Shown here piece after piece: positions 2,402 through 27,015 of a DNA stretch of 39,029 nt. Each line of letters starts with the position of its first letter. The stretch's first letter is position 1. A program made the position numbers and the translations under genes. Source of the stretch: a virus (Duplodnaviria; Caudoviricetes); the IMG/VR virus record IMGVR_UViG_3300048848_000223, positions 1 through 39,029 of that record. One strand, 5' to 3'. The notes beneath the pieces are model-generated. The model did not search any database, was not told the DNA's origin, and saw nothing but the letters and a program-made list of their open reading frames with translations.

Positions 2402-2483
2402 CTTTTTAGTCCGGAACACGTCGCGCTGCGCACGGAGCCACTACGCGGTGTCCGGCCCCCATCCGCCCTGACTTTCGACCCCC
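2402..2483. repeat. Direct repeat copy A of the predicted cos region (second cos-like site)
   Basis: 71/82 ungapped identity to 26934-27015; 20-bp identical core CCACTACGCGGTGTCCGGCC at 2438-2457. Confidence 0.9.
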
Positions 2484-2504
2484 GCCCCCCCTATCTCAAC
2501 CCCG

Positions 2505-2699
2505 ATGCCCGCCCAGCCGCCCCCTACCGACGACGACGCGCCGACCTGCGACGGGATCGGGCACGCTTGGCGGATCCTGCTGGGCGACTGGCACGAGCAG
2601 CACGCGGTGGCGCGCTGCTGCGGCATCCGCGCTGTTTCGCGCTTCGGCGGGCCTTGGGAGCGGGTCGATGAAGGGGAAGCGCAGGCGTCAGCCGACTAG
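2505..2699 (+). CDS. Small hypothetical protein (64 aa, Cys/His-containing)
   Basis: ATG ORF filling the gap and overlapping the int2 stop; no recognised motif. Confidence 0.35.
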   Translation: MPAQPPPTDDDAPTCDGIGHAWRILLGDWHEQHAVARCCGIRAVSRFGGPWERVDEGEAQASAD

Positions 2700-3893
2700 C
2701 GCGGCGCCCCAGGCGTCGAAGATCGCCCGCCTCGGCGCGAGCTGCTGCGCGCGGTTGTAGGCTGCCTCGACCTTCGCCGTGGATCCGTCTTCCTTCTTGA
2801 GGACGTGACCGAGCGCCTGGTCAATCTCGCTGCGCTCCTGCGGCATCTGCAGGTTCATGATCGTCGAGAAGGTGGCGCGCCAGCCGTGCGGCACATGGCG
2901 GCCGGCGAATGACGTCCGCGCGTAGAGCGCGCCGATCGCGGCCTCGCCGAGCGGCGCGGCGTCGCCGGCGCCCGGGAAGATATGCATAATCGGGATGCCG
3001 GCATGCGTATTCTCGCGCATGCATGCATGCAGCACCGCCACGGCCGCCGGCGACAGCGGCACGACATGGTCGTGCGCGGCATCGCCCTTCTTCGCGGCCG
3101 CAAGCTTCATGCGCGCCGCGGGCACGCGCCAGATCGGCGCAGCGCCGTCCAGGTCCTCGATCTCGCTCCACCGCGCGCCGCGCACGGCAGCCCAGCGCAT
3201 GGCAGTCAGCGCCAAGAACCGCGACGCCAGTTTCGCCGCTGGCGCCGCCTCGAGCTGGTCGACCTCGGCGAGCAGCTGGCGCGCGTCGACGATCGTCATC
3301 ACCGCCGCATGATGGCGCACGGCCGCCGGCTTCTTCAGTCCGCGGCCGACCTTTTCGGCCGGATCGTTGGTGCACCAGCCCTCGCCGATCGCCAGCTCGA
3401 ACACGGCCGAGATCCGCTGGCGCAGGCGGCGCGCCGTTTCGCGCGCGCCGCGGCGCTCGACCGTGCGCAGCAGCTCGAGCACGTCGGCTGGCTCGATCGT
3501 TTCGAGCGCCTCGGCGCCGATCGCCGGGAACACGTCACGCTCGAGGCTGCCCAGGACGTCGGCCGCGTGGACCGGCGTCCAGCCTTCCGCCTGGACCGCG
3601 TGCCAGGCGCGCGCGGCCGCCTCGAACGATTCGACGCGCGACGAGCGCGTGCGCGGGTCTTCATTGCGGGCGAGCTGCGCGCGGGCGGCCTCAGCCCGGG
3701 CCCGGGCAGCGACAAGGTCGACTTGAGGATAGCTGCCGATCGTCAGCAGCTGCTCGCGGCCGCCGAAGCGGAACCGGAGCCGGAAGCTCTTGAGCCCGGT
3801 CGGGGCGACGTAGAGGTGCAGCCCGGCGCCGTCGGCGAGCTTGTAGGCGGCCGCGCGCGGCCGCGCGGCTTTCACCGCGGCGTTGGTGAGCAT
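2688..3893 (-). CDS. int: Tyrosine integrase 2, P4/IntA-type with arm-binding domain
   Basis: MLTNAAVKAARPRAAAYKLADGAGL start after AAAGGAG SD; catalytic R (LTAMR), HGWR, LGH, Y (AYNRA) all present. Confidence 0.93.
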   Translation of the reverse strand: MLTNAAVKAARPRAAAYKLADGAGLHLYVAPTGLKSFRLRFRFGGREQLLTIGSYPQVDLVAARARAEAARAQLARNEDPRTRSSRVESFEAAARAWHAVQAEGWTPVHAADVLGSLERDVFPAIGAEALETIEPADVLELLRTVERRGARETARRLRQRISAVFELAIGEGWCTNDPAEKVGRGLKKPAAVRHHAAVMTIVDARQLLAEVDQLEAAPAAKLASRFLALTAMRWAAVRGARWSEIEDLDGAAPIWRVPAARMKLAAAKKGDAAHDHVVPLSPAAVAVLHACMRENTHAGIPIMHIFPGAGDAAPLGEAAIGALYARTSFAGRHVPHGWRATFSTIMNLQMPQERSEIDQALGHVLKKEDGSTAKVEAAYNRAQQLAPRRAIFDAWGAALVG

Positions 3894-4008
3894 CGAAACT
3901 CCTTTGATGTTCCACACCGCGGTCGGGCGAAAGACTTGATCGTCGCCGGTGACACGCTGGACGTTGCGGGGCGGCTAGGGCACCCTTGGACAAAGCAAAG
4001 GGGGGAGT

Positions 4009-4575
4009 ATGTCTTTCAAGATCGACCGCGCGATCAATTTCTTAAGCAAAACCCAGTTCGGCTTCGTTGGCATCGCCATGCTCGCTTCGGTGGGGTCACT
4101 GACAGGCGCGCTGTTCTCCGCGAAGCAAACAAACGAGGTGAGCGCGCTCGCGGACTCGCGGGACGCAATTGTTAAATTGCTCAACGCCGATGATTTTACT
4201 TTGATCAGGAAGCAGGTCGCCGAGCTGCAAGAGCGGTCTCGCCGACTGGAAGCCCGGCCATCTTCGGCCCCACCCGTTGCTACAGACGTGGCTGATCTTG
4301 CGTCGAAGATCGATGCTGTGGCCGCGCGTCAGGCTAAGCTTGAGAACACGCTTACCGACCAACCGTTGAAGGCATTGGAGATCCCGATGCTGCGGCGGGA
4401 TTTGGACAGCCAAAGTAAAGAAATTGCGTCTTTGACAGCGTCTCTCCAGCGAGCCCAAGAAGCTCAATGGGACACAATGAAGTGGGTAATCGGTGGTTTA
4501 GGCGCGGCGATCGCTGCGATCTTCATCCCATTCGTGAACCGTCTTTTAGCGGGCATCCAGAACAGTAACGACTAA
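4009..4575 (+). CDS. Moron: coiled-coil protein with N- and C-terminal hydrophobic segments
   Basis: GGAG SD; visibly lower GC; opposite to flanking genes; TM-like FGFVGIAMLASVGSLTGALF and WVIGGLGAAIAAIFIPFV. Confidence 0.75.
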   Translation: MSFKIDRAINFLSKTQFGFVGIAMLASVGSLTGALFSAKQTNEVSALADSRDAIVKLLNADDFTLIRKQVAELQERSRRLEARPSSAPPVATDVADLASKIDAVAARQAKLENTLTDQPLKALEIPMLRRDLDSQSKEIASLTASLQRAQEAQWDTMKWVIGGLGAAIAAIFIPFVNRLLAGIQNSND

Positions 4576-4599: not shown

Positions 4600-4704
4600 C
4601 GCGGCGGAGGTGGCCTCCGCCGCGGTCAACAGGATGCTAGGTTTTCCGCGGCTTTGCGGGGTGCAGATCGGGTCCGATACCCGTTCCGCCGGGCTCGATA
4701 CCCG
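4600..4704. other. att-like / terminator region: 11-bp inverted repeat plus a CGATACCCG direct-repeat pair
   Basis: CGCGGCGGAGG-TGG-CCTCCGCCGCG (4600-4624); CGATACCCG at 4675-4683 and 4696-4704. Confidence 0.45.
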
Positions 4705-4710
4705 CAACGG

Positions 4711-5553
4711 TCAGCCGCGATTGCGGATGATCAGCTCGGTCACCTTCGTGCCGCGGCCAGCTGCTGCACTGGATAGCGTCCAGGTAGTTTCCACCTCGCT
4801 AATATCAAAGGCGGCGAACGTCTCACGAATGAAGGGCGTGTCGTTGATCGACATCACGAACTGGCCGGCGATGCCGGCGAGCTGCTCGGCCATCGCCACA
4901 TAGTCGGCGCGGCCGAAGCCGGTGCCGTAGCCCGACGTCTCGTCATAGGGCGGGTCGAGGTAGAACAGCGCGCCCTTGCCGTCGTAGCGGCGGATCACGT
5001 CCTGGTAACCCAGCTGCTCGATCGTGACCGCCTGCAGGCGCCGGCTGAGCTTGCGCAGCTCGGCGCGGAGCAGGCTCGCGTTGATCCGCGACGACTGATC
5101 CTTGCGGACGCCGAACGTGCGGCCCTCGATCCTCCCGCCGAACGCCAGGCGCTGCAGGTAGAGGAAACGGACGGCACGCTCGATGTCGGTGAGCGTCGAC
5201 GGATCCACGCGCTTCTGGCGCTCGAACTCATCCCGGCCGGCGAGCAGCCACGTGAATTCGTCGACGAACGGCTCATAGTGCCGACGCACGACGCGGAACA
5301 GGTTGGCGACATCGCCCGACAGGTCGTTGATGATCTCCACGGGCGGCGCCTTGCCGCGGCGCAGGAACACGCCGCCCATGCCGACGAACGGCTCGATGTA
5401 GGACCGGTGCGGGATCTGCTCGATCAGCGCGCAGAGGCGCTTTGCGAGGTTCCGCTTGCCGCCGAGGTAGGCAGCCGGCGGGTTGGCCGCGATCACCGCG
5501 GCGTGGACTTCGTGCTTTCGGGTAAGAATTGCCGGCGAGGTGGTCGCTTGCAT
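4711..5553 (-). CDS. dam: Orphan DNA adenine methyltransferase (D12/Dam class)
   Basis: YLGGKRNLA, EPFVGMG (motif I), INDL, LDPPY (motif IV), MSIND. Confidence 0.92.
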   Translation of the reverse strand: MQATTSPAILTRKHEVHAAVIAANPPAAYLGGKRNLAKRLCALIEQIPHRSYIEPFVGMGGVFLRRGKAPPVEIINDLSGDVANLFRVVRRHYEPFVDEFTWLLAGRDEFERQKRVDPSTLTDIERAVRFLYLQRLAFGGRIEGRTFGVRKDQSSRINASLLRAELRKLSRRLQAVTIEQLGYQDVIRRYDGKGALFYLDPPYDETSGYGTGFGRADYVAMAEQLAGIAGQFVMSINDTPFIRETFAAFDISEVETTWTLSSAAAGRGTKVTELIIRNRG

Positions 5554-5906: not shown

Positions 5907-6242
5907 CTACCGTCCGGCGGCAGCCGCTTGGTCGATATCGCCGGCGGCCGCCTCGGCCGCACGCAGCTGCTCGAGCTGGTCGGCCGCGGACGACGCCGCG
6001 CGCGCAAGGGCGAACGCGACGTCGGCACGTGCCTCTGCGGTGGCGATCGTCGCCTGCAGCTGGGGCGGGAGGAAGGGCGCCGCGATCGCCGCTGCGATGC
6101 GGATCCGCTGGTAGGACGAATATGCGCGCTCGAGCGACGTGTGCCGATCGGCAACCGGCGGCATGGAAGCGCAACCCGCCAACGACAGCGAGGCAGCGAT
6201 CGAGACGACGATCGCGCGCAGCGGGGCGAAAAGGCGCCTCAC
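5907..6242 (-). CDS. Lysis-cassette lipoprotein (spanin candidate)
   Basis: GTG start overlapping endolysin stop (GTGA); signal peptide with lipobox LAGC. Confidence 0.7.
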   Translation of the reverse strand: MRRLFAPLRAIVVSIAASLSLAGCASMPPVADRHTSLERAYSSYQRIRIAAAIAAPFLPPQLQATIATAEARADVAFALARAASSAADQLEQLRAAEAAAGDIDQAAAAGR

Positions 6243-6799
6243 TTGGGCAGCCCCGTCAGGCACAGCGCGCGCTCGCGGCCGCGACGCGCTACCAGGCCGC
6301 GCAGCACGCGGCCGCCCGCCTTGTCCCACATCGTGAAGGCATCGCAGCCCGCGACCCACTGGCCGGCGTTGAAGCGGCGCGCGGCGGTCGACCGGCAGAA
6401 GCTCGGCCAGCCGATGTTGTACGCCAGGCTCACCGCCGCGGCGGCCTGGTGCGGCCGGGCGTACAGCGCCGGCGCGCATGCCACGACGCGCGTTGCCATC
6501 TCGATCAGCTCGCCCTCGAGGAGGACGGTGCACTGCGCCTCGGTATAGGTCTGCCCCATCCGAACGCCGCGCGTGATGCCGTCGCAGGCGGTCGGCACCT
6601 TCACCGCATCGAGGTAGGCGCGCAGATACTGCGGGCCCGACACGTGGCGGATCGTGGCCGCACCGGTCGGCGCGATCGTCACGGCGACCTTGCGGCCGCT
6701 CTCCTCGAGCGGAACATTGGTCAGCACCGTCGCCGCGGCAACGGCGCTGCCCAGCACGCCGGCGAGCGTGCGGACGATGACCTTCTTCAGATCAGCCAT
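6239..6799 (-). CDS. Endolysin, GH24 lysozyme with SAR-like N-terminus
   Basis: AYLDAVKVPTACDGIT, AVSLAYNIG and LRGLVARRGRERALC motifs; Ala/Gly-rich hydrophobic N-terminus. Confidence 0.92.
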   Translation of the reverse strand: MADLKKVIVRTLAGVLGSAVAAATVLTNVPLEESGRKVAVTIAPTGAATIRHVSGPQYLRAYLDAVKVPTACDGITRGVRMGQTYTEAQCTVLLEGELIEMATRVVACAPALYARPHQAAAAVSLAYNIGWPSFCRSTAARRFNAGQWVAGCDAFTMWDKAGGRVLRGLVARRGRERALCLTGLPK

Positions 6800-7028
6800 C
6801 GAGCTTCTCCTCGTCGACGACGATCGACGCGGCCGGCGCGATCGCGCGGCCACGCCGGCGCACGAGCGCCTGCACCGTGTCGGTTTCGTAGATCCGGATC
6901 AGCGTCCAGAAGATGGTGAGCAGCGCGGCGACATGGGGCAGCAGCTGCGCGAGCGTGCCGACGACGATGCCGGCCGACAGAACGTCGGCCGACGCCTTCG
7001 CGGCGCCGGGCACGTGGTCCAGCGTCAT
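6792..7028 (-). CDS. Holin
   Basis: 78 aa with hydrophobic segments and a charged C-tail, directly upstream of the endolysin. Confidence 0.75.
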   Translation of the reverse strand: MTLDHVPGAAKASADVLSAGIVVGTLAQLLPHVAALLTIFWTLIRIYETDTVQALVRRRGRAIAPAASIVVDEEKLDG

Positions 7029-7071
7029 ATGAAAACTCCGATGAGATGGGGCCGCCTGGGTATCCAGGCCC

Positions 7072-9678
7072 TTATTCGTCTGTGAGGAACGGCAGCTGCT
7101 GGCGGATCACCTGCGTGGCGAGGTTGAGCCCGGCGATATTCGCGTGCGGCGCGTCATATTTGTACGCCGGGTTCCAATCACCGTCGTCGTTGTTCGCCGA
7201 AAGCGCACGCGCCACGTCGAAGAACGGGTAGTCGCCGAAGTAGCGGTTGCGGATGTCTGCGTTGATCGCCGTGTTCTTCGCTGTCTGCCCCGTCGCCGGC
7301 AGCAGCGTGCCAAGCACAGGCATAGCGCCGGTCGACAGGATGTGGCCGATGATCGTGGCTGTGTTCGTACGCCAGACTGCGGCGTCGGTCTCGTTGGTCC
7401 CTAGATTGAGCACGACATACTTCGGCGCGAAAGCTAGCAGATCGGACTGGAGGCGCTCAGCAAGGAAGTAATCGGTGCGATCACCGCCACGGCTCATATT
7501 GAGCGTGTCGCCCTTGCCGCGGATTCGCGAGAGCTGGTTCGGCGGCGCGAAGCGCGAGTTTGCCCCCAGCGGGGAGTTGCCCTCGTAGTTGCTGTCCGAG
7601 ATCCACAACCAGTGGCAGTCGCGCTGCACGTCCGTTTGCGCGTGAAACGAAAGGCATTCGGCGTTGCCCGCGAGGAAGATAGCGCCCGGCTTGCCCCACA
7701 TGCGGCCTACCGGATCGAGCTGGCCCCAATAACCCTCGAGCGTCACCTGCTGCCCGGTGAGGCTGTGCGACACGGCCGCGATCGTACGGCCGAGCCGCTT
7801 GCGCAGCGTCATGACGTAGATGTCGCCGGCCACGACGGTCCACGGGATTGCAATTGAGGTGCCGGGGCCGGCCTGCTGAAATACGCCCGCAATGCTCGTC
7901 CAAGGCTCGAGACGCAGAACGGCCGCGCCGGCGCCGGCCGTCGCGTCGATGCTGGCGACGACGCCGAACGCAAAATTGTTGCCCATCGGGATCGTGCAGA
8001 TCCCGACCTTGCTGGCGACCGACACCATCTGGAAGGCCGCGGTCAGCGTGCGGCGCCCTGCGGCGCTGAAGCGATCGTGGACCGCATAACGATACTGGCT
8101 GGGGCTGGTGGCAGTCAGCTTGCCGTTGATTGCCATGTTGGCGCCGAGCGTCCACCCGGCCGGCGTGGCGGTGCCAGCGAAGGTCGTGCGCGTGATAGTC
8201 GTGCTCTTCCGCAGCTGATCAGCATAGGCGTCGCGCTGCGTCACAGCCGTTTGCAGGATCGGGCGCATCTCGGGCCGGATCGTCGAATGCGCGACCAGCA
8301 CCGCGGCCGACTGCGACGCGTTGGAGACGTTAACGCCGCCAAAGCCCGCCGTCTTGTTGCTATATTGGACGAAGCCGGTTTTCGGGGCGAGCACATACTG
8401 ATCGCCCGGCAGCACTGCCACCGGCGTGTCGAACCGCGCCGTCGCGAGACCGGTGACCAGCGTCACCGCACGACGGGCGATGCGCCGCCATGTGCCGCCG
8501 CCGTTCGGCCGGTAGATGTCAACGAACGCGGCCCCAGGCGTCGTGCCGCCGTAATACTCGATCCCGACGAAGTCCGCGGCGAAAGCAAACACCTCGCCGG
8601 TGCCCCAATGATTAGCGCTCGCGAAATTGCCTCCCGCCACCGGCGCGTCGCCATAAGCGGCCTCCTCAACCGCCGCCGCGGCTGGCTGGGAGCCGGCGCG
8701 CGCGGCGGCGACGTCCGTCGCCACGGCCACCACGTCCTGCAGCGCCACCTGGAACAGCGGCTTGGTCGATCCGCTCGTCAGCGTTTGAGCGACGCCGGCG
8801 GGCTGGCCGGTATTGGTCAGACTGTCGCCCGCCACCCCTACAGCCGCGCCGAAATTCGCATTGCCGGCAGCGCGGTAAATCCCGATCCTGCCGCCGACCG
8901 GCACGACAATCCCTGCCGGGAAATGCTCTCCAGCCTTAAGCGTGACCGCGCCCGTCGTCGGGACGCCTGTGATCGGCTCGTTCACGATGATGTCCCACTT
9001 CCCGCCGGGGCTCTCGGCCGCGACGATCAGCCGCGCGCCTCCATCCCCGACGGCAGTGCACCACGCCAGGATTTGCGCGATGGGCAACTGCGCCTGCGCG
9101 CCAACGCCAAGGAAGCGAACAGTGCCGTCCGCGATGTTGGTCGTGCCGGCCGCCGGGGCGTTGCCGACCACGACCTTTGCCCCCGCATAGCCGGCCGTGA
9201 CCGCCCCCGCCTGCGCGATTGCTTCGACCGAGCCGGTTACCGATGCGGCAGCCAGTTCTGCGCCGATCCGCGCGTTCTGGGAGAGTGGCACGTTGCCGAC
9301 GATCGTTGCCGCGTCGGCGACCACAGCGGCCGCTTGCCCACGCACTTGATCCGTCGCGACGCGAACAGCCTCGACTGCGTCAATCTTGGCGTCGGCCTCG
9401 CCGAGCTTCGCCGCCACCTGCAGATCGACGTCGGTCAACTTACCATCGACCTCGCCGAACTTCTCGGACACGGCCTGGCTGAGTTCGGTCAGGGTCTCGT
9501 CGACGTTTGCACCGGCAGCGGCGATCGCGGCGTCGACCTTGTCGATCGTCTCCGCCTTCAGTGCCGCGCCGGTTGGCGCCGGCAACGCGCGATTACCATC
9601 CTCGTCGATCGTGTTGTACAGGATCTCGGCCGCGTTAGGGCCGTCGTGGCCCATCGCCACGCGTTCGCGGGTGCTCAT
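7072..9678 (-). CDS. Tail spike/fibre with C-terminal SGNH/GDSL hydrolase domain
   Basis: N-terminal coiled coil, beta-rich middle; ISDSNYEG, SRGGD, LGTNE and DAPH blocks. Confidence 0.75.
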   Translation of the reverse strand: MSTRERVAMGHDGPNAAEILYNTIDEDGNRALPAPTGAALKAETIDKVDAAIAAAGANVDETLTELSQAVSEKFGEVDGKLTDVDLQVAAKLGEADAKIDAVEAVRVATDQVRGQAAAVVADAATIVGNVPLSQNARIGAELAAASVTGSVEAIAQAGAVTAGYAGAKVVVGNAPAAGTTNIADGTVRFLGVGAQAQLPIAQILAWCTAVGDGGARLIVAAESPGGKWDIIVNEPITGVPTTGAVTLKAGEHFPAGIVVPVGGRIGIYRAAGNANFGAAVGVAGDSLTNTGQPAGVAQTLTSGSTKPLFQVALQDVVAVATDVAAARAGSQPAAAAVEEAAYGDAPVAGGNFASANHWGTGEVFAFAADFVGIEYYGGTTPGAAFVDIYRPNGGGTWRRIARRAVTLVTGLATARFDTPVAVLPGDQYVLAPKTGFVQYSNKTAGFGGVNVSNASQSAAVLVAHSTIRPEMRPILQTAVTQRDAYADQLRKSTTITRTTFAGTATPAGWTLGANMAINGKLTATSPSQYRYAVHDRFSAAGRRTLTAAFQMVSVASKVGICTIPMGNNFAFGVVASIDATAGAGAAVLRLEPWTSIAGVFQQAGPGTSIAIPWTVVAGDIYVMTLRKRLGRTIAAVSHSLTGQQVTLEGYWGQLDPVGRMWGKPGAIFLAGNAECLSFHAQTDVQRDCHWLWISDSNYEGNSPLGANSRFAPPNQLSRIRGKGDTLNMSRGGDRTDYFLAERLQSDLLAFAPKYVVLNLGTNETDAAVWRTNTATIIGHILSTGAMPVLGTLLPATGQTAKNTAINADIRNRYFGDYPFFDVARALSANNDDGDWNPAYKYDAPHANIAGLNLATQVIRQQLPFLTDE

Positions 9679-10103
9679 TCTGCTCTCCGATCGATGATGA
9701 GGTAGACCGCGCTGCCCGACTGGTCGGGGCGCTGAGCGCCGACCGCTGCCGCGGCGTGCTCGATTGACAGGGGCCCGCGATCGACGGGTTCGTCTTCGTC
9801 GCGCCAAAGGCGGGTGAACGCCCATTCGAGATCGACCAGGCCGGCGAGCGCCGGTCCGACGTGCGCTGGATGGCGCATGATGTGGGTGAAGCCGTTCGAC
9901 AGCTGCCTTGGCGTGCTCAGGGCCGTGACAGCGTCGGCGCTGGTACCCAATGCGGTGCCGACACCCGGGCCGGAGATCGTGAAGGCGAACCGGGCACCGG
10001 GCAGCTCTCGTGCGAAGCCGTTGGCATCGAGCATTTGGTATCCGAGCGCCAGCGCGTCGTGAGCGCGGACGATCATGCGGCCGCTGATGTCGATCGTCAG
10101 CAT
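9675..10103 (-). CDS. Hypothetical tail-associated protein
   Basis: 142 aa, coupled to the tail spike gene by ATGA overlap. Confidence 0.7.
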   Translation of the reverse strand: MLTIDISGRMIVRAHDALALGYQMLDANGFARELPGARFAFTISGPGVGTALGTSADAVTALSTPRQLSNGFTHIMRHPAHVGPALAGLVDLEWAFTRLWRDEDEPVDRGPLSIEHAAAAVGAQRPDQSGSAVYLIIDRRAE

Positions 10104-10168
10104 GCGCGCGTCTCCGCGCGGCCGGCCTGCGCCGTCCGTTCGTCCATGTGGATCTCCATCAGTTCAGC

Positions 10169-18120: not shown

Positions 18121-18135
18121 CGCCGCCTCCCGTCA

Positions 18136-18246
18136 TCACCGCTTGTTCGCCGCGATCCGCGCGTCGACCATCGCCCAGAACTCGTGCGGAGTGGCCCGCC
18201 AGAACTGGTCGGCCGACCATCCGAAGCTATCGAGCGCCAGCCCCAT
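18136..18246 (-). CDS. Tail assembly chaperone C-terminal (gpT-like) part, -1 frame
   Basis: Not in the ORF track; reads MGLALDSFGWSADQFWRATPHEFWAMVDARIAANKR, a typical W-P-x-x-F-W-x-x-T-P-like signature. Confidence 0.85.
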   Translation of the reverse strand: MGLALDSFGWSADQFWRATPHEFWAMVDARIAANKR

Positions 18247-18641: not shown

Positions 18642-19066
18642 TACGCCGTGGCGCCGAGGTTATCGACGGTCGGCGCGCCCTTGTTGACCATGTCGAACGA
18701 CCAGGTCGCGGGGCCGTCCTTCGGGTGCGTGGTGGAGAAGTTGCCGATACCGACCAGGCCCGCGAACTTCACGATCGCGCCCTTCACGATGCGCACGTTC
18801 GCCTCGCGCGTGGTCTTGGCGACGGTCGACGCGCGCGAGATACCGGGATCCGGCAGCTTCAGGTTGCCGTTCGCGCGGATGTTGATCTTCTGCTGGCCGA
18901 ACGACGTGCTGCCATAGACGCCGTCGTCCTTGGTGCTCTCGTCCTGCTCGGTCGACGTGCGGCCCCAATCGAAGCTGATCTCGCCGCCGATCGGGTCGAA
19001 GCCCTCGGTTCCGCTCTCGCCATCACCGATCTCGATGCGCCAATCGGCGCCCTGTTCCGTTGCCAT
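18641..19066 (-). CDS. Major tail tube protein
   Basis: Synteny; 141 aa; DESTKD motif. Confidence 0.85.
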   Translation of the reverse strand: MATEQGADWRIEIGDGESGTEGFDPIGGEISFDWGRTSTEQDESTKDDGVYGSTSFGQQKINIRANGNLKLPDPGISRASTVAKTTREANVRIVKGAIVKFAGLVGIGNFSTTHPKDGPATWSFDMVNKGAPTVDNLGATA

Positions 19067-19087
19067 GCTGTTGCTCCTGTTCCCGGC

Positions 19088-19492
19088 TCAAGCCGGCTCT
19101 GCGTAAAGTTCGAAGGTTTGAAGGCCGGCGTAGGTGACGCCATCCGGCGCGGCGCCGCTGGCCGAGCCGGCGACGACGCGACCGCCCTGCAGGGTGACGC
19201 CGTCCGCCTCGAGCTGGACGTCGACGAGCGCGCGCTCGTTCGCGTGCATGATGGCGAGCAAATCGGCGCGATCCTCGCCGCGGTAGATCGTCACGATGTC
19301 GATCGTGATCCGCAGCTCGGGATCGCGCTTCCCGCCCTCGTTGACCCAGTCGAGGTCATCGAGCTGGACGAAGTTGGGCTCCTGGTCCTGCGGCACCGTA
19401 TCGAGCGCAACGGCATTGATGCCGACCAGGCCAGCCGCGATCGCCACGAACACCGCGCCGCGCGCTGCCTCGACCAGGTTGATCTCGCTCAT
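19088..19492 (-). CDS. Tail terminator/completion protein (DUF3168-like)
   Basis: Synteny; DTVPQDQEPNFVQL. Confidence 0.8.
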   Translation of the reverse strand: MSEINLVEAARGAVFVAIAAGLVGINAVALDTVPQDQEPNFVQLDDLDWVNEGGKRDPELRITIDIVTIYRGEDRADLLAIMHANERALVDVQLEADGVTLQGGRVVAGSASGAAPDGVTYAGLQTFELYAEPA

Positions 19493-20061
19493 GCGGAAGC
19501 TCCAGCAGCGGGAAGGGTGCGCGACCAGAAGTCGGCGATCTGCTGCACCGCGACCGCTTCCGCTTTTGGCAGGCGGACGAACTCGCGCGCCTCTTGCGCC
19601 CGCACTTTCATCTTATACGCACTGCCGATCGGCGTGCCCTTGTTTGGGCCGCGCCGGCGCAGCCGCGTCGATGCGCCCTCGTAGATAACACGGCGCTTGG
19701 TGCCGTTCCTGCCGTTGCCCTTGATCCGGCGTTTCAGCCGGCGGGTGACGAGCACAGTTTGCGCCATGCGGCCGAAATTGACGAAGCGGCCGTAGTAGCG
19801 GCTGCCCAGAACGGCTTTCGATCGCGGCCCGCCGGCGATGCCGAGCAGACCGACACGCGCCTGCAGCCGCTCGGTGAGCAGCTGGACGACCAGGCCACCG
19901 CGCAGGTGGCCGGTCTTCTTCGCGACGGCAGCCTGCTGTTCGGCTGAGACGTCGCGCGCGATCCGCCCGATCGTATCGGCCAGCTCGTGCGCCGCGGCAG
20001 CGGGCAGATTGTTGAAAAGCGCATTGGCCTCCGCCAGGCCACGCACGCGATCGCGGCTCAA
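19489..20061 (-). CDS. HK97 gp10-like neck/tail morphogenesis protein
   Basis: TTG start overlapping upstream stop; KTGHLR and YYGRFVNFG motifs. Confidence 0.8.
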   Translation of the reverse strand: MSRDRVRGLAEANALFNNLPAAAAHELADTIGRIARDVSAEQQAAVAKKTGHLRGGLVVQLLTERLQARVGLLGIAGGPRSKAVLGSRYYGRFVNFGRMAQTVLVTRRLKRRIKGNGRNGTKRRVIYEGASTRLRRRGPNKGTPIGSAYKMKVRAQEAREFVRLPKAEAVAVQQIADFWSRTLPAAGASA

Positions 20062-20390
20062 GCCTCGGTGTCCGCGTGGATCACCAGCCAGCGCCGGCGC
20101 CCGTCGGGGTCGACAGCCGAGCGGATATTCAGCGGATCCGGGTCGCCCGCGTATAGGACCTGGTCGCTCGTCAGGATCTCGAGCCGCCAGCGGATCGTGA
20201 TCTTGTAGACGCGGATCCCGCGGAGCACCTTCTCCTTCACCGCCTCGGTGCCGGTGAGCCCCAGCACCTCCGCGGCGACGTCGCCGGCGATCGTCATCTG
20301 ATCGGACGTGAAGCCGCCTTTGCCGGTCGGTCGACGCACGGGCCGAACGATGGCAACGCGGTTGCGCAGCTGGCCGGCGCTGATCGTCAT
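20058..20390 (-). CDS. Head-tail adaptor/closure protein (SPP1 gp16-like)
   Basis: AGQLRNRVAI, ITIRWR and DPDGRRRWL motifs. Confidence 0.88.
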   Translation of the reverse strand: MTISAGQLRNRVAIVRPVRRPTGKGGFTSDQMTIAGDVAAEVLGLTGTEAVKEKVLRGIRVYKITIRWRLEILTSDQVLYAGDPDPLNIRSAVDPDGRRRWLVIHADTEA

Positions 20391-20710
20391 TCGTCGCCCC
20401 CGTCGTCCCACCGCTTGAGCGATTCAGTGATCCAGCTGACGCCCAGCGGCATCTCGCCGCGGCCGTCGGCGCTGATCGCCTCGGGGTTCGCGTACCAGGC
20501 GCCAACGATCATGCTGATCGCCTGACACGCGGTGGCGAGATCGTCGCCGGCGACGTCGGGCGCGTCACCAACGATGACGCGGCCGGTTTTGAGCTCAACC
20601 ATGCGCCGGGCGGCGGTGATGTAGCGCGTCAGCGTCCCGTCGTCGGCCGATGGGCCCGGGTCGAGGCGGTTGTCCGCTTTGACCCGGGCGAGCGTGACGG
20701 GTTCGGGCAT
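20387..20710 (-). CDS. Head-tail connector (HK97 gp6-like)
   Basis: EPVTLARVK...YITAARRMVE...AWYANPEA. Confidence 0.9.
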   Translation of the reverse strand: MPEPVTLARVKADNRLDPGPSADDGTLTRYITAARRMVELKTGRVIVGDAPDVAGDDLATACQAISMIVGAWYANPEAISADGRGEMPLGVSWITESLKRWDDGGDE

Positions 20711-21114
20711 TAGCCGTCCAGGAGGCTCTTGGCGAAGGCGACCGCGTCAGGGTGCGGATCGACGCGGCCGGCCAGCTGCAGCTGCTCGATCGCGAGGGCC
20801 GGGGCGGAGATGATATCGTCGACCTCGTATTCGTCGAAGGCGACGAGCACGCGCGCGTCGAGGATCTCCGGCTCGGGAGCCGGCCCGGGCGGTGCTGCAG
20901 CCGGAGCGTCAGCGGGCGCTGCGGCATCCGCCGGTGCCGGAGCGTCGGTCGGAGGCGATGGCGCCGCGGCCGGCGTGGTATCCACCGGGGCCGCAGCCGG
21001 CGTGGCGTCTGCAGGTGGCGTGTTCGCGGCTGGCGTCGCGATGGCGGCGTCGATCGCCGCCGGCGTCGGCTGACCCCCGGCGGGGTTCGGCTTGCGCTTG
21101 GTCTTGGGGTCCAT
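20710..21114 (-). CDS. Pro/Ala-rich hypothetical protein after the capsid gene
   Basis: GAGGG SD; low-complexity N-half and compact C-terminal domain; TAATG overlap. Confidence 0.7.
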   Translation of the reverse strand: MDPKTKRKPNPAGGQPTPAAIDAAIATPAANTPPADATPAAAPVDTTPAAAPSPPTDAPAPADAAAPADAPAAAPPGPAPEPEILDARVLVAFDEYEVDDIISAPALAIEQLQLAGRVDPHPDAVAFAKSLLDG

Positions 21115-21144
21115 GAACGTCCCTCGTAGCTATCTGGAAGCGAG

Positions 21145-21170
21145 AGGAGGCGGACGCGAGCCCGCCTCCT
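21145..21170 (-). terminator. Hairpin after the major capsid gene
   Basis: AGGAGGCGG/CCGCCTCCT 9-bp inverted repeat; weak U-tract. Confidence 0.5.
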
Positions 21171-21179
21171 GGGCGAGGA

Positions 21180-22430
21180 TCAGCTCGCGGAGTGGCGGAA
21201 TGCCTTCACCGGTGCGCCGGCGGTCACCAGCTTGCCGTCATGGCGCGACCAGGCGAGGAAGCCGATCTGGCCCTTCTTGGTGTACGCGCTGTCGTCGAAG
21301 CGGAAGAGCGTCACCTGCATGATGTCGCGGATCATGTAGGCCGACAGATCGCCGAACAGGATCGACTTCGCGTTGGCGGCCATCACCGGCATGTGCTGGT
21401 TGATGGTGTAGCCGTAGCCGAGGAACACGTCGGGTTCCTTGGTGCTGAAGCCCGGCAGCCAGAGCGGCCGACCGTCGTTGTCCTTCATCTTCTTGAGCTG
21501 GCGCAGCGTGGTGTCGTGGAACATCCAGCCCACGCCCGGCAGCGAACGGTACGCCGGATCGACCGAATGCTCGAGATCGATCAGGTCGTCGGTCAGCACC
21601 GAGGTCGACCCGCCGGTCGCCGCCGTCTTGCCGATCGGCGCCGCGGTGACGACGCCCTCGGGCTCGCCGGTACCGCTGCCCACCGTGAAGTGACGGTTGG
21701 TGATGCGCGCGATCCGCATCGCCAGCGCGCGCCGGATGAACGCCTCGACATCGATGCCCGGACCCTGATCCTGCAGCAGCTCGAACGGTACGGTGACGAC
21801 CTTCGAGCTATACTTGCGCGCACCGATCTGCGTGGTGCCGAAGTTCACGTCGGAATCGGCCGCCGAGACGTTCTCGGGCACGATCTCGCCCTCGGACGCG
21901 GTCTCGTCGACGGTCGGCCAGGGGAGAGGATTGCCGCCCGCGGTAGCGAACACCGTCGCGACGTCGCGCATGCCGCCGAAGGTCGCGAGCGCCTCGAGCA
22001 GCTGGCCGCCCCAGCCCGCCGGTACCAGGTAGCCGCCGGTCGCCGGCGTCTGCGTGGTCTGGACGTTCTGCGGACCGTTGCGCAGGAGCGTCATCTCCTC
22101 CGTCGTCATGCCGCGCTCGCCGCGCACCAGGAAGTTGCGGAAGGCCGCGTTGTAGCCGTCCTGCTGCTGACGCTGGTCGGGCGACAGATCGGCGCGCAGG
22201 CGATCGTTGGAATCGCGGTTCGCCTCGTCCTGCGCCTGGTCGCCATCGATGCGCGCCTGGCGCTCGGCAGCGGAGATGCTGGCATCGATCCGGTCGATGT
22301 CGGCGTAGATCGCGTCGACCTGCGCGCTGATCTCGGCCGTGTAAGCCGCACCGGTGTTGTTTTCGACCAGGTTGCGAGCGGTCTTCGCCTTGTCGGCGCG
22401 CTCGTCCCGGAGCGCCTTGATGTTGATCAT
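21180..22430 (-). CDS. Major capsid protein, HK97 fold
   Basis: N-terminal coiled-coil delta domain; GGYLVP, ELLQD, KDNDGRPLW and ILFGDL motifs; GGAG SD. Confidence 0.96.
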   Translation of the reverse strand: MINIKALRDERADKAKTARNLVENNTGAAYTAEISAQVDAIYADIDRIDASISAAERQARIDGDQAQDEANRDSNDRLRADLSPDQRQQQDGYNAAFRNFLVRGERGMTTEEMTLLRNGPQNVQTTQTPATGGYLVPAGWGGQLLEALATFGGMRDVATVFATAGGNPLPWPTVDETASEGEIVPENVSAADSDVNFGTTQIGARKYSSKVVTVPFELLQDQGPGIDVEAFIRRALAMRIARITNRHFTVGSGTGEPEGVVTAAPIGKTAATGGSTSVLTDDLIDLEHSVDPAYRSLPGVGWMFHDTTLRQLKKMKDNDGRPLWLPGFSTKEPDVFLGYGYTINQHMPVMAANAKSILFGDLSAYMIRDIMQVTLFRFDDSAYTKKGQIGFLAWSRHDGKLVTAGAPVKAFRHSAS

Positions 22431-22443
22431 GGGAAACGTCTCC

Positions 22444-22475
22444 AAAAGAAAAGGCCCCGCGGATCAGGCGGGACC
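22444..22475 (-). terminator. Intrinsic terminator-like hairpin immediately upstream of the capsid gene
   Basis: GGTCCCGC-loop-GCGGGGCC followed by TTTTCTTTT on the - strand. Confidence 0.6.
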
Positions 22476-22511
22476 ACAGGGGTGCCGGGGACGGCGCCAG
22501 GGGTGATCGGC

Positions 22512-23234
22512 TTAGGCGGCCGTTCGTTCGTAAAGCCCGAGCCGGGCGAGCGCGCGCATGCGCGGCGCTTCGTCGACGTCGGGAGATTGCTCGACCAGCG
22601 CCTTGGGCGCCTTGTCGTAGACCGCGAGGTTGAAGGCCCGTGCCTGCGCCTGCGCCTTCTTTCCGGTCACCTCGACGACGCTGTCGGCGAAGCCGGCGTC
22701 CACGGCCTCCTGCGCGCCGAACCAGGTCTCCGCCTTCATCCAGTCGCGCACCTCAGCGTCGGTCTTGCCGGAACGCGCGACGTAGCCGTCGACCAGGACG
22801 TCGTCGATCTTGCCGAGCAGCGTTGCGGTAGCCGTCATGTCATCGGCGTTGCCCATCGCGAACGTCCAGGCCTGATGGATCATGTAGAAACCGCCCTCGG
22901 CGATCTCGACCGACGCGCACGCCAGCGTGAGGGCAGTCGCAGCTGAGGCCGCGAGACCGTCGATCTTGGCGGTGAAGGTCGCAGGATGCGTAGCGATCGC
23001 CGTCATCATGGCCCGCGCCTCGAAGACATCACCTCCGGGCGAGTTGATGCGGAGCGTCACCTTCGGCGTCGTGACCGCGGCCAGCTCGCGCGCGAAATCG
23101 GATGCCGATACGCCCCACCAGCTGTCGATCACGTCATAGACGTAGATCGTGGTCGTGTCGTCGACCACCTCGGAGCGGATGCCGGCGCCCTTGCCGGTGT
23201 TCGCCCGGGCGAGGTTGAAGAGCTTACGCTGCAT
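22512..23234 (-). CDS. ClpP-type (S14) prohead protease
   Basis: INSPGGDVF, GLAASAA, MIHQAW and AETWF motifs. Confidence 0.95.
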   Translation of the reverse strand: MQRKLFNLARANTGKGAGIRSEVVDDTTTIYVYDVIDSWWGVSASDFARELAAVTTPKVTLRINSPGGDVFEARAMMTAIATHPATFTAKIDGLAASAATALTLACASVEIAEGGFYMIHQAWTFAMGNADDMTATATLLGKIDDVLVDGYVARSGKTDAEVRDWMKAETWFGAQEAVDAGFADSVVEVTGKKAQAQARAFNLAVYDKAPKALVEQSPDVDEAPRMRALARLGLYERTAA

Positions 23235-24576
23235 CCTTGGGATCCTTGTCGTCGTCGCCCAGCGCTGCATCCAGCTCCGGGTCGCGGGGTTGCGGCTGCG
23301 CCGGGTCGCCGGTTGGCGAGTAGACCACGTCGCCGCCCTCGATCGGGGGCAGGTTCACCTTCCGGCGGGCTTCATTCTGGGCGAGCCAGCCGGGCAGCTG
23401 GTTGCCGCCGAGGCCGGCGCGCAGATATGCGGCGATCGCCTTGCTGTCGCCCGACAGCAGGAAGTCGTCGTCCCACCATACGAAATGCTCGGGCGTGCGC
23501 GCGCCGACGACCGGGAACAGCTTGCGCGTCCACTCGCCCGCCATCCGCACCTTGTGCGGCAACAGCGTCCAGCGATCGAAGCCGATCGACTGCTGCTCGA
23601 CGCCGGTGCCCCAGTTCGAGGTGCCTGACGTCTCGCCGGCCATGTTGGGCGGCACGCCATAGATCCGGCAGACGTCGACGACGGAATATTGGAGCAGCTC
23701 GAGCAGCTGCGCGTCCTTGGCCGTCACGGCCACGCGTTTCCACTCTGCGCCGTTCTCGAGGATCAGCGGGTTATGGGCGTTCGCAATGCCCATCGCCTTC
23801 TTGCGCAGGTATTCCTTGAACGCCTTGCGCTGCTCGCCCGTGACCGTCTGATCTTTCGGGAACTGGAAATAGTCGTTGGTCATGAGCCCGCGCTCAAACT
23901 GGCCGGCCTCGTAGTCGCGGGTGGCGAGATTGATGCCGACCGATTGCGCGTGGTTGGAGATCGGCGACAGCGCGCGGATCCCGTCGACACTGAGCCCCGG
24001 GCCTTTGAAGTGGAGCACGTATGAGGCTTGATGATCCTCGGTGGACCCATCCTCGTTGGTGAAGCGGTACCAGATCGACTTGTCGGCCGACCGGAATGGC
24101 AGCACTCGCGCCGGGAAGTAGAAGTCGACGCCAGTGATCGTGCCGTTGCGCGCCTGGCGGATCAGGCCGTAGCCGTTGCCGCGCAGCAGCAGCTGGATCG
24201 CGACGTTCTCGATGAAGACCGGCCCGGTCATCTCGTTGTTCGGTTCGCGATTCAGGAACCGGTCGTAGGGATGGTTGTGCTCGCGCACGAAGTCGCCGTT
24301 CGGCAGTGAGCGGAAGACGCCCAGCTCCTGCGTCATCAGCGCGCCCGAGATCAGCGTCACGCACCGCCACACGGCCGTCGAGCGCATCGCGGTCTCGGGC
24401 GTCACGTTCACGCCGGCCGCAAGTTGCCCGGTACCGAACCACTCGAACACGTCGCCATCCATGCCGGTGACGATCGCCGCACTGTCTACGGCCGCGCTGA
24501 CGCCTGGCGCCGATCGGCGCGCTTCGACCTCGGCCGCGCGCCCTGACAGCCGATAGCCGTTGACGATCTCAGTCAT
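23224..24576 (-). CDS. Portal protein, HK97 family
   Basis: TAVWRCVTLIS, LLRGNGY, RIYGVPP and NEARRKVNLPPIEGGD motifs. Confidence 0.96.
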   Translation of the reverse strand: MTEIVNGYRLSGRAAEVEARRSAPGVSAAVDSAAIVTGMDGDVFEWFGTGQLAAGVNVTPETAMRSTAVWRCVTLISGALMTQELGVFRSLPNGDFVREHNHPYDRFLNREPNNEMTGPVFIENVAIQLLLRGNGYGLIRQARNGTITGVDFYFPARVLPFRSADKSIWYRFTNEDGSTEDHQASYVLHFKGPGLSVDGIRALSPISNHAQSVGINLATRDYEAGQFERGLMTNDYFQFPKDQTVTGEQRKAFKEYLRKKAMGIANAHNPLILENGAEWKRVAVTAKDAQLLELLQYSVVDVCRIYGVPPNMAGETSGTSNWGTGVEQQSIGFDRWTLLPHKVRMAGEWTRKLFPVVGARTPEHFVWWDDDFLLSGDSKAIAAYLRAGLGGNQLPGWLAQNEARRKVNLPPIEGGDVVYSPTGDPAQPQPRDPELDAALGDDDKDPKDAA

Positions 24577-26420
24577 GCGTCGTCGTCGCCGTCATCATCA
24601 TCATCGTCGAGGTCGACGCCGTATGATCCGCCATAGGTCTTCCCCTTCATCTCGACGTTATCGGCCGCGCCGGCGCCCATCGCGCAGGTGACGATTCCGT
24701 CGATGCGGCCGCGGGAGCGCTTTTTGTCGAAGCACCGATTTCCCTGCGCATCGTCATCGAGCGCGGCATTGGCCGCGCAGCTGTAAGTCACCGGCGAATT
24801 GTCGATCACGATCGTGCCGGTGAGGATCCGATCCTCGAACCGCTGGATCGATCGCGGCATGCAATATTGCCGATCCTCGAACACGACGCGCTTGCCCTGC
24901 GCGTGGCTGACCATCTTCAGCCCGTTGCCGGCCGGCTCGTCCGAATTCTTGAAGCGCCAGGCGGGAAAGCCGATCGTCTCGCAGGCGGTCTCGAAATCGG
25001 CCATTTTCGCGGGGTCGAACACCAGCTCGACGACGTCGTGCTGCGAGCAGATCGCCTTCACCCGCTCGGCGACGAACGTGTAATCGATCGTCGCGCCGCC
25101 GACCGCGCTCAGATGCCCCGCCTCGATCCACTCGGGATAAGGCGCGCCGTCTTGCTTCGCGCGATCTTCGACGCCGTCCTTGGCGGTCCAGTACCAGGTC
25201 TTCTGCCAGAGGATCCCGTCGCCATCGATCCAGGTGGCGGTGAGCGCCGTCAGATCGTTCTTCTTCGACAGGTCGAGGCTGAGCCAGCAGCGGCACCCGC
25301 GCAGCAGCTGCATTGTCTCGTCATCGATGACGTCGAGGACGGCGCCGAAACTCTCCTCGTTGATCCAGAAGTCGGCCGCGCCCGCGGGAATGCCGAAATA
25401 CAGCCGCTTGACCGACGCGGCCTTTGAAAGGCGGGTTCGCGCTTCCGCCACCGCCTCGCGGATGTTCGTAATCGGATAGGTGACGCCCAGCGCCGGCAGC
25501 GACTTGTGCCAGGCCTCCTCGTTCTCGAAGATCGTGTCGCGATCGCACTTGTCGGTGCGCGCCACGAAGCCGAAGGCCGTGTCGCTTTTAACGTCGCCCT
25601 TCGCCACCGCCTGCGCGGTGTCGGAGATCTCGGTGCCGACGTGCTGTGACATCGCCGGGGTGTTGCTCCCCAGCACCATCATCGCGCTGCCGGCGATCTT
25701 GTCGATCGCCGCCTGCCAGATCTCGATCTGGTCGATCGAGCTAAACTCGTGGATCTCGTCAGCCAGCACCATGCGGGGTCGCGGACCGGACTGCTGCTTG
25801 CCATCGGCCAGCGGCAGGAAGAACGATTGCGAACTCGGATGCTCGATCTTGCCGGCGTTGTCGCCTTCGCCGCGGATCAGGACGTGACCCATTGATTCGA
25901 GCGTCTCGTGCTCGTCGTATCCCGGCACCGGCGCGCGACACATCGCCGTCGCGTCCTTGAACAGCACCATCGACGTCTGCTTGTTCGCCGCAATCGAATA
26001 GATCTGGGAGCGGCGAAACCCGCACCAGCCCATGGCATAGAGGCCGAGGCCCGCCATCATCGGCGACTTGGCTTGACCTTTGCCGGTCTCGACATAGGCG
26101 GTGCGAAATCGCCAGCGGCCGGCGGCATTCACCCAGCCCATCAGCGAGCCGACCACGAACGTCTGATATGGGATCAGGCGGAATGGCTGCCCCTCTGCCG
26201 GTCCGTCCGTGATCGTGAACAGCGAGGGGAAGAAATCCAGCGCACGCTGCGCCAGCTCGGGTCGCCAGAAGTAGCCGCGCGCCGGCGCGTCGCGCAGATC
26301 GCGCAGATGTCGCTCCGCCGCGTATCGGACCAGCTCGCCGACGACGAAGTCACCGCGGACCGCCGCCGCCGCCCAGGCGGTGGTGGGATCGAGCGGCTCG
26401 TCCTTAACCCGGCGAGCCAA
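24573..26420 (-). CDS. terL: Terminase large subunit
   Basis: Walker A-like GKGQAKS, Walker B LADEIH, nuclease LDLSKKNDL and RGRIDG. Confidence 0.96.
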   Translation of the reverse strand: MARRVKDEPLDPTTAWAAAAVRGDFVVGELVRYAAERHLRDLRDAPARGYFWRPELAQRALDFFPSLFTITDGPAEGQPFRLIPYQTFVVGSLMGWVNAAGRWRFRTAYVETGKGQAKSPMMAGLGLYAMGWCGFRRSQIYSIAANKQTSMVLFKDATAMCRAPVPGYDEHETLESMGHVLIRGEGDNAGKIEHPSSQSFFLPLADGKQQSGPRPRMVLADEIHEFSSIDQIEIWQAAIDKIAGSAMMVLGSNTPAMSQHVGTEISDTAQAVAKGDVKSDTAFGFVARTDKCDRDTIFENEEAWHKSLPALGVTYPITNIREAVAEARTRLSKAASVKRLYFGIPAGAADFWINEESFGAVLDVIDDETMQLLRGCRCWLSLDLSKKNDLTALTATWIDGDGILWQKTWYWTAKDGVEDRAKQDGAPYPEWIEAGHLSAVGGATIDYTFVAERVKAICSQHDVVELVFDPAKMADFETACETIGFPAWRFKNSDEPAGNGLKMVSHAQGKRVVFEDRQYCMPRSIQRFEDRILTGTIVIDNSPVTYSCAANAALDDDAQGNRCFDKKRSRGRIDGIVTCAMGAGAADNVEMKGKTYGGSYGVDLDDDDDDGDDDA

Positions 26421-26907
26421 GGAAGGCGTCCGCGCCGGCTCTGCGCTCGCGCTTCGCTACGACCTTCGCGACCTTGCCGCGCCGCCCAGGCGAAAGCCCC
26501 AGCTGCGCCTCGAGCCGCTCGGCCGTGTTCTCCGCTTCGCGCATGGCCTTGTAGTGGATCGACAGGCGGGCAATCGCCTTAGGGTTCTTCTCGTTGTCGG
26601 GCTCGTCGACGATGCCGCCCGATGCGACCGCGTTCGAGCAGCGATTGTAGACCAGGTAGGCGAGCACCAGGCGCTGCACGGCATGACCGTTCGACGATGA
26701 CAGGATCTCGCGTTCGTCCATCTCGCGCGCGATGCGCTGCCAATGGCCGGAGGCTACCTCGCGCTCGCCGATGTCGGGCAGCAGGATCTCCCAATCCGGC
26801 TCGAGCACATTGGCGATCTCGAGGCGGGTGATCGCCGGCGCAGCAGCCGGCTTCTTCGCTGGCGCCTTACGCGGTGCCCGCTTCGGCTTGGAGGCTTGTT
26901 CCGTCAT
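26404..26907 (-). CDS. terS: Terminase small subunit (P27-like)
   Basis: Upstream of terL; LGLSPGRR C-terminal motif; GGAGG SD. Confidence 0.9.
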   Translation of the reverse strand: MTEQASKPKRAPRKAPAKKPAAAPAITRLEIANVLEPDWEILLPDIGEREVASGHWQRIAREMDEREILSSSNGHAVQRLVLAYLVYNRCSNAVASGGIVDEPDNEKNPKAIARLSIHYKAMREAENTAERLEAQLGLSPGRRGKVAKVVAKRERRAGADAFLGSPG

Positions 26908-26933
26908 GGCGTCGCGCCTCCCGATCGCCCGAA

Positions 26934-27015
26934 CTTTTTACCCTGAAACACCTCGCACTGCGCACGGACCCACTACGCGGTGTCCGGCCGCCGGCCGCCC
27001 TCACTTTCGACCCCC
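26934..27015. other. Predicted cos (packaging) region, copy B
   Basis: Canonical location between HNH and terS; on the - strand GGGGGTCGAAAGT then dyad GGAC-ACCGCGTAGTGG-GTCC; duplicated at 2402-2483. Confidence 0.75.

Follow-up and report, generated by a model that had tools for sequence, protein, structure and literature searches.

A duplicated cos-like block and a second integrase with repeated att-like sites in a Sphingomonas-type prophage

Integrons, including phage-borne integrons and clusters of attC sites lacking integron integrases (CALINs), combine a tyrosine recombinase with an adjacent array of accessory genes separated by sites, a distant second array, and defence and stress cargo (available sections of Qi et al. 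2023, PMC9892861). IntDOT of CTnDOT, an arm-binding tyrosine recombinase that moves a whole conjugative element in Bacteroides, accepts mismatches in the overlap provided that the sequence beside the first cut is identical (PMC2817482, in the part available). Tandem accretion of cis-mobilizable elements (CIMEs) yields att-derived sites in series, alternating with integrase-less cargo, stacked at the end of a chromosomal target gene and bounded by attL and attR (PMC5704250, accessible text). P2 and P4 have one cos each, with variable defence cargo near cos, rep and a P4-type integrase; the accessible portions of their descriptions mention neither repeated recombinase sites nor a dedicated recombinase (PMC9122126, PMC13586616). 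The phage-inducible chromosomal island (PICI) EcCICFT073 has a pair of cos sites (cos1, cos2), with cosQ/cosN-type sequence in common with helper phages (PMC6739421, in the sections available). Here we describe the IMG/VR virus record IMGVR_UViG_3300048848_000223 (39,029 bp; "the window" below means this whole stretch), a Sphingomonas-type provirus with two copies of a cos-like block and two integrase genes, the second of which, int2, lies beside repeated att-like sites.

The window shares features with each of these systems and departs from each. Unlike integrons, it has a P4-type integrase with an arm-binding domain instead of IntI, and arm-plus-core sites with a 7-bp overlap instead of attC; no attI or cassette promoter was identified in the int2 system. 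In contrast to IntDOT, many one-armed sites lie inside the prophage. The sites differ from those of CIMEs in having a palindromic core unrelated to tRNA, one-sided arms, differing overlaps and a dedicated second integrase. Whereas a 15.7-kb relative at a tRNA-Asn gene is PICI-like in size and content, the window's element is a full prophage, its reduced forms look like prophage deletions, and no Rpp-like redirecting protein was identified in it.

Our best explanation takes the window prophage, copy A and int2 together, and we put its probability at roughly 60%. Copy B is the predicted packaging site of one ordinary-sized, tRNA-integrating prophage. Copy A is tentatively a spare cos for one terminase type, carried with the rep-int2 end and usable in trans, and int2 is probably a cassette recombinase that acts on repeated att-like sites. 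The features on which this explanation turns are as follows.

1..1260, plus strand: int1, P4-type tyrosine integrase (Pfam Arm-DNA-bind_3, Phage_int_M, Phage_integrase)
1286..2155, plus strand: rep, HTH_36 replication-initiator-like gene (family search)
2402..2483, minus strand: cos copy A, a complete cos-like block of HK97 type, located between rep and int2
2688..3893, minus strand: int2, P4-type integrase with arm-binding domain (Pfam Arm-DNA-bind_3; start codon aligned across relatives)
4603..4703, minus strand: putative cassette site 1 (arm boxes GGGTATC twice at 4676-4703; core GGCGGA-N7-TCCGCC at 4603-4621)
26934..27015, minus strand: cos copy B, in the HNH-terS spacer, predicted genuine packaging site
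31032..31123, minus strand: putative cassette site 2 (core 31032-31050; arm boxes 31106-31123)

Two cos copies in a tRNA-integrating prophage

Copies A and B are ungapped direct repeats, identical at 71 of 82 positions and separated by 24,532 bp. An identical 20-mer starts at 2438 and 26970, and the flanking DNA is unrelated. Realignment bore out this repeat as given in a preliminary description of the window, and family searches and comparison with relatives confirmed its gene calls (int1, rep, int2, dam, lysis, tail, HK97-type head, terL/terS, HNH, gam, cI/cro and ParB). The dyad whose centre was reported in the core is present, but its left arm varies among the copies B of relatives. A blastn comparison of the rep-int2 spacer with the window gave E=3e-24, and Rfam held no match for the repeat. 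Since a second exact 20-bp repeat occurs in the window at 10677/11430, within a tail-fibre gene, the 20-bp core by itself is not unique there, while the 82-bp block is. This tail-fibre repeat is held in internal repeats of approximately 370-380 bp (10677-11691).

We considered an assembly artefact as the origin of the repeat using assembled contigs, as distinct from raw virion reads, of two runs. In run X1, a possible source of the record, each copy is internal to its own contig, with 0 differences and a depth of 16-20 throughout, which rules out such an artefact. The long X1 contig continues 12.8 kb beyond position 39029, so the window, although a complete virus record, is a Sphingomonas-type provirus trimmed to genes. 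Contigs of run X2, from a related strain, break at 2455 and at 26958/26987, presumably because of a shared 30-mer.

Copy B occupies the HK97 cos position between HNH and terS, as had been proposed, and is conserved together with the terminase in 14 copies B. A profile built from ten HNH-terS spacers alone finds copy A in the window and in some other rep-int2 spacers. Against the B consensus, 18 copies A match 92% at the 32 columns that are invariant in B and 50% at the 41 variable columns. In a tree, copies A and B intermingle, and well-supported branches force at least two origins; the tree and column counts omit one partial copy, one weak copy and duplicate records. The preliminary description had named a lack of the duplicate in relatives as a point that would count against it, and relatives do carry a cos duplicate.

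Scanning IMG/VR and JGI contigs for the pattern without regard to its location returned 67 loci, 53 of them distinct and several from the same samples. The order was terS-cos-HNH at 21 of the distinct loci and rep-cos-int2 at 18; two were classifiable on one side and 12 on neither. Hybrid junctions (rep-cos-HNH or terS-cos-int2) numbered 0 among the 39 distinct loci classifiable on both sides. Copy A was absent from 10 of the 13 int2-bearing prophages with this terminase type (G005, G097, G252, G299, G292, G057, G041, G333, G1094 and G1095, the last two judged by blastn only). It also stands alongside lambda-type terminases (G331, G411), a second HK97-type terminase (G002, G794) and a third terminase type (G795 and, as a weak copy, G409). 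Terminase-less elements carry it as well (G003, G253, G311, G358 in part, G791 and the tRNA-Asn element), including att-bounded ones of 15.7, 17.7 and 34.9 kb. Co-varying cos pairs, which had been proposed as a check, were found in that the central bases of A and B agree in 3/3 prophages with both copies, but not in the larger number that lack copy A.

We suggest that copy A would enable packaging in trans, by this terminase type, of an element that has a head module of another type or has lost its own. In lambda, cleavage at a cos is inefficient until the head is about three-quarters full. In the window's phage, copy A would be mostly bypassed, at about 62% fill, or would provide an alternative start for a full-length genome.

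The layout of relatives bears on how such a phage enters the chromosome. In S. dokdonensis, the order is tRNA-Ser, int1, rep, copy A, with an int1 homolog (83% identical) after tRNA-Ser(CGA); the remaining phage lies on a second contig with a 16-base end overlap and a 14-bp tRNA-end duplicate, for a total of about 38 kb with the join inferred. The S. metalli prophage has no copy A and carries a different integrase at the early-operon end, with a 46-bp tRNA-Val duplicate beside rep, 43.8 kb away. Matches to rep occurred in 152 of 401 genomes, and 39 of these matches were retrieved; among approximately 60 loci drawn from the best rep and int2 matches, most showed the tRNA-[int1]-rep / int2-dam end. 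The tRNA att duplicates that delimit the prophages lie at int1 or at a different end integrase and never at int2, and dam and int2 are contiguous within the prophage at every locus holding both. This recurrent tRNA-bounded layout indicates that the phage integrates as one unit and that rep is cut off from the early operon on integration. int1 is likely the prophage's own tRNA-targeting integrase.

Two other arrangements were rejected. A separate int1-rep-cos minimal satellite in tandem with the phage does not fit, since rep and int2 lie inside the att-bounded prophage and no att duplicate follows cos A. As for int2 serving as a second chromosomal integrase, none of the loci examined had a prophage opened at the dam-int2 site.

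Additional observations concern this end of the prophage. rep lies across attP from the early operon (window 1286-2155; prophage ends in G004 and G005) and is severed from the cro-side promoter when integrated. The end integrase is found on either side of att and belongs to at least three types (P4-type, another tyrosine type and a large serine type). At 2297-2312, 3' of rep, a hairpin, GGCGGCTTGCGCCGCC, occurs with a conserved upstream block in relatives with or without cos A, and is a candidate origin element. In S. dokdonensis (G004; C5 start and C13 end), the last bases of contig C5 are found again 60 bp into C13, on the opposite strand, with short inverted repeats on either side; this junction, just right of cos A, is a micro-inversion or a library artefact.

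Copy A could instead be a non-functional relic or a recombination hotspot, captured repeatedly beside the int2 stop and spread by module exchange and gene conversion. Its dispensability in most cognate prophages is consistent with this, as are decayed or isolated copies (partial in G358, weak in G409, and in G018) and the extra cos of another type in the early region of G003; a good consensus match is also expected from recent capture. However, the pattern scan found 18 A-type loci against 21 of B type, and the block remains whole, left and right of the predicted cut, next to rep genes that are only 30% identical at lowest. We regard a relic as somewhat unlikely. That each phage duplicates its own cos as a general rule was rejected, since comparison of each spacer with its own genome gave a long repeat only in the window and, later, in G792; the same comparison gave a 21-bp repeat in G003.

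The cos-like block of the second HK97 type in G003 (C1:21304-21391, L021) lies between cro and a cII-like gene and has a 21-bp core in common with the cos A of that element, which lacks head genes. In G018 (C1:3043570, L180), a lone site and a weak cos copy, separated by 1.2 kb, neighbour a Crp-like gene; the 20 kb examined there contains no int2.

int2 and the associated family of arm-and-core sites

The catalytic residues R, K, H, R, H and Y of int2 are retained in 51, 51, 50, 51, 51 and 50 of 51 homologs, respectively. These homologs form one clade in a quick tree (support 99), and int1 falls in a clade apart. Upstream of int2, relatives share a conserved element in which GGGTATC occurs twice, followed by a spacer and GGCGGA-N7-TCCGCC. 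The att-like site reported earlier is present at 4603-4703, but it is not single: it belongs to a repeated family with a second copy at 31032-31123. Site 2 is oriented as site 1 and lies 26,429 bp from it, with a different overlap. A profile built without the window finds site 1 at E=2e-14 and site 2 at E=2e-9.

A second-round profile gave 131 matches (one a reversed partial) in 61 stitched prophage regions, two of them duplicates, and 0 in reversed regions. The sites cluster as two arrays, one between dam and int2 and the other between cI and a LexA-like gene, and their direction is that of int2 in 111 of the 111 sites counted. They occur in 54 of 55 int2 elements (49/51, plus G253 after extension and four added later), the sole exception being a 12-kb remnant, and in 0 of 4 rep-bearing related prophages without int2, with about 40 kb searched in each. 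Of 137 sites with two exact arm boxes, 117 have an arm-to-core distance of 40-42, 51-53 or 61-63 bp, and in 135 the two arms are 11-12 or 21-22 bp apart. This one-turn periodicity is as expected of a protein-bridged complex. In int1 elements, this arm pair recurs at the tRNA attR, about 60 bp ahead of the tRNA core.

The overlaps are hypervariable even between close relatives, with 77 types in 123 sites, yet position 1 is G in 156 and position 2 is G in 161 of 178 sites. From this GG bias we infer that int2 may tolerate overlap mismatch under a rule like that of IntDOT. In the mechanism that we propose, int2 would bind arms and core in the manner of lambda/P4-type integrases, cut at the overlap edges, tolerate mismatch except at the first two bases, and insert or remove genes between sites. 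Like lambda/P4-type att systems, int2 has an arm-binding domain and an intact RKHRHY set, and its sites have an inverted core around a 7-bp overlap with phased arms. Partner overlaps are not identical, however, and arms do not face inward as in attL/attR.

The boundaries of homology between elements were examined next to the sites. Among pairs of sites, 273 share upstream DNA only, and 170 of these lose homology before the core, mostly where dam ends. In the 103 pairs with homology reaching the core, 97 stop at +15 to +29, two stop inside the core and four continue; these pairs are not independent, and the conserved motif itself draws alignments through the core. Array 1 of G037a and array 2 of L144 share a cargo (88% over 524 bp) whose start coincides exactly with the core in both. 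L144 has six sites in its array, spaced 393-718 bp. The genes flanking and filling the arrays in the window, and its remaining features, are listed below.

2505..2699, plus strand: small open reading frame (ORF) between cos A and the int2 stop (70-77% identity in G001-G004 and G405)
4009..4575, plus strand: array 1 cargo gene, 188 aa, no family; a different gene in the close relatives compared
4711..5553, minus strand: dam-type methyltransferase, constant neighbour of site 1
5907..26907, minus strand: lysis, tail, HK97-type head, portal, terL (24573-26420) and terS (26404-26907)
27001..28125, minus strand: HNH endonuclease, small ORF and Mu Gam-like gene
29571..30035, minus strand: LexA-like DNA-binding gene, constant neighbour of array 2 (weak TIGR00498 match)
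31126..32331, minus strand: PIN-domain cargo gene ending at the site 2 arms (Pfam PIN_8)
33441..34265, no strand assigned: cI/cro immunity pair, outer neighbour of array 2

The PIN-domain cargo gene has a GC content of 47%, versus 67% for the late block. The 188-aa cargo gene had no match in family or defence searches, and the small ORF, kept solely in the window's close group, had no family match. Upstream of the LexA-like gene, the motif CTATGTTC (30020-30035, minus strand) is kept in most relatives and resembles an alphaproteobacterial SOS box. The early operon also contains a phage-borne gene for a GapR-like nucleoid protein (35954-36220, plus strand).

Across the arrays, cargo was called mechanically as ORFs of at least 110 aa (n=127), of which 19 match PADLOC at 1e-5. 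Full-length matches comprise PDC-S33, S35, S42, RmrA/T, PifA, NsnA, PDC-M11 and retron VI; some of the others are to generic domains. Pfam matches include a beta-lactamase with LysR, an SMR pump, MntP, glyoxalase, NUDIX, GGDEF, YadA and MucR, and the majority of cargo ORFs fall in no Pfam family. The beta-lactamase gene and its LysR regulator lie between two sites in a 23-kb att-bounded prophage remnant (L080:15499-17337, G321).

We compared these arrays with the defining features of known systems. Like an integron, the locus has an accessory-gene array bounded by repeated sites beside a recombinase. Integron attC sites have paired boxes, RYYYAAC and GTTRRRY. Such boxes were found in 0 of 178 sites and 1 of 178 control windows, and NCBIfam gives only PRK09692 (P4-type) for int2, not an IntI family. 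The cores are likewise not duplicates of a host target-gene end, as in CIMEs: tRNA duplicates occur only at prophage ends, and a tRNA-end-like motif upstream of int2 was seen in one element only among the elements listed. We consider the proposed cassette system integron-like in its predicted working, yet without IntI or attC, and likely to exchange defence and fitness genes at the repeated sites of Sphingomonas prophages.

The arm-core repeats might alternatively be sites at which int2 resolves multimers, or terminator or linker sequences, with cargo arriving by ordinary recombination. A strict homology rule would let the matching sites of a dimer recombine, ParB occurs alongside a plasmid-like rep, and the terminal cargo lacks a trailing site and is found in both orientations. 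Resolution sites would not be expected to number up to six per array at single-gene spacing, nor to have overlaps that vary between close relatives, and a T-rich tract lies 3' of only 4 of 178 cores, for which reason a terminator role was rejected. Taken together, these points make this alternative unlikely. A docking site overlapping the int2 start was also rejected, since the DNA upstream of the ATG shows no conservation. A second family of small hairpins, TGTCCGC...GCGGACA, occurs about 95 bp before cores (G005, G066, G263, G311, G321); it immediately precedes the arms at 8 of 178 sites and follows two cores, and may bear on cassette formation.

Several observations weigh against our combined explanation. 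Overlaps differ in all 38 adjacent site pairs, so that ordinary homology-dependent integration is ruled out. Among the phages compared, no pair differs by exactly one site-to-site unit, and no excised circle was found. In each array, the final cargo is followed by no further site and runs up to the int2 start codon, where no sequence is conserved. In G026, the same cargo is inverted between same-direction sites, an arrangement that simple excision and reinsertion would not give. The site profile was trained on the regions in which it was counted (window excluded). As for copy A, at least six terminase-less elements lack it, several copy-A loci were found by cos search, so class frequencies are biased, and a profile of the second HK97-type cos matched no rep-int2 spacer. 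Finally, int1 of the tRNA-Asn element has an in-frame stop, and this element is possibly a grounded remnant.

A reduced element and other possible uses of the two cos copies

The tRNA-Asn element is the second element of this kind in S. dokdonensis DSM 21029, in a genome shared with a prophage that has this terminase. It spans 15.7 kb (G004:C4:394168 to C8:13277; L017, L178) with an 18-bp att duplicate, and contains int1, rep, copy A, int2, three cores with cargo, cI/cro and an AlpA-like gene, but no late or virion genes. rep and int2 are intact, and the cargo includes an Eco57I-type methylase and a PIN gene. Judged as a PICI or satellite, it is att-bounded and has an integrase, an AlpA-like gene, rep and cos without virion genes, although int1 is interrupted. 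Removal of the late block between the arrays would leave exactly this content.

A broader proposal is that Sphingomonas temperate phages have a cassette platform with no relation to integrons, in which a duplicated prophage integrase shuffles defence and fitness genes among one-armed, mismatch-tolerant sites and, in addition, excises the whole 26-kb late block to yield a cos-A satellite of about 13-16 kb, which we consider rather unlikely. As to excision itself, int2 would recombine site 1 with site 2, removing a 26.4-kb late block together with cos B and leaving about 13 kb of helper-packageable replicon that retains rep, int1, int2, immunity and cos A. The window's sites are direct repeats, and each product would carry exactly one cos. 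Besides the tRNA-Asn element, whose content is of this kind, att-bounded and with cos A, G238 joins cI, sites and int2 without late genes. However, G238 lacks cos A, int1 of the tRNA-Asn element is interrupted, and late-block pieces remain in most terminase-less elements (G003, G253, G311, G321, G171, G263, G791), whose deletions thus did not run from site to site. Linkage of dam and int2 persists across site 1, with int2 more than 75% identical in 14 of 17 pairs in which dam is more than 85% identical. Such a split thus appears quite unlikely.

Lateral transduction is less probable still. Copy A faces outward, adjoins rep and lies 2.5-5 kb from att, so that packaging from an integrated prophage replicating in situ could run through rep, int1 and attL into host DNA. 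Cos-type terminases, however, require a second cos for the terminal cut (PMC6687093, in the portion available). In addition, conservation between A and B ends 27 bp short of terS, and TerS sites within terS, if any, are therefore missing from copy A.

The preliminary description had proposed a bipartite or in-situ-packaged phage, in which the terminase cuts both copies to give a 24.5-kb structural segment with int2 and a 15-kb replicon with int1, each with compatible ends and integrated by its own integrase. Matching cores in all three prophages with both copies (more than 60 identical bases in G792) and on separate contigs of two metagenome samples, along with a similar A-B distance in the window (24.5 kb) and G792 (25.3 kb), would agree with this. 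Re-ligating, integrating segments should leave hybrids, though, and the scan found none; with copy A missing from most cognate prophages and present beside foreign or no terminases, prophage ends at tRNA att sites instead of int2, contiguous dam and int2, and flat X1 depth over both segments, two segments are the least likely of the explanations considered.

Distribution and significance of the int2 system

The int2/site system was found almost only in the Sphingomonas sample. The exact site pattern occurred in 4 of 401 sampled genomes of the order, and at E<=1e-70 int2 matched only the centre genome among 301 sampled from the class. Its best match among sampled cultured phages was 45%, and sampled plasmids gave no match at 1e-60. 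No published description of the system was found in the literature searched, a search that covered text outside supplementary prophage tables.

The route by which temperate phages acquire and exchange defence genes at fixed hotspots is an open question: the available part of a 2026 survey of P2 and P4 lists candidate mechanisms for such exchange, with none settled there (PMC13586616). In the prophages described here, a candidate enzyme adjoins its sites. The site profile delimits the edges of cargo, mostly genes of unknown function, and so yields a set of candidate genes for defence. An integrase that tolerates mismatches and has a compact site might also be of use as a tool. Lastly, copy A as a spare cos points to a direct path by which a prophage could become a satellite.

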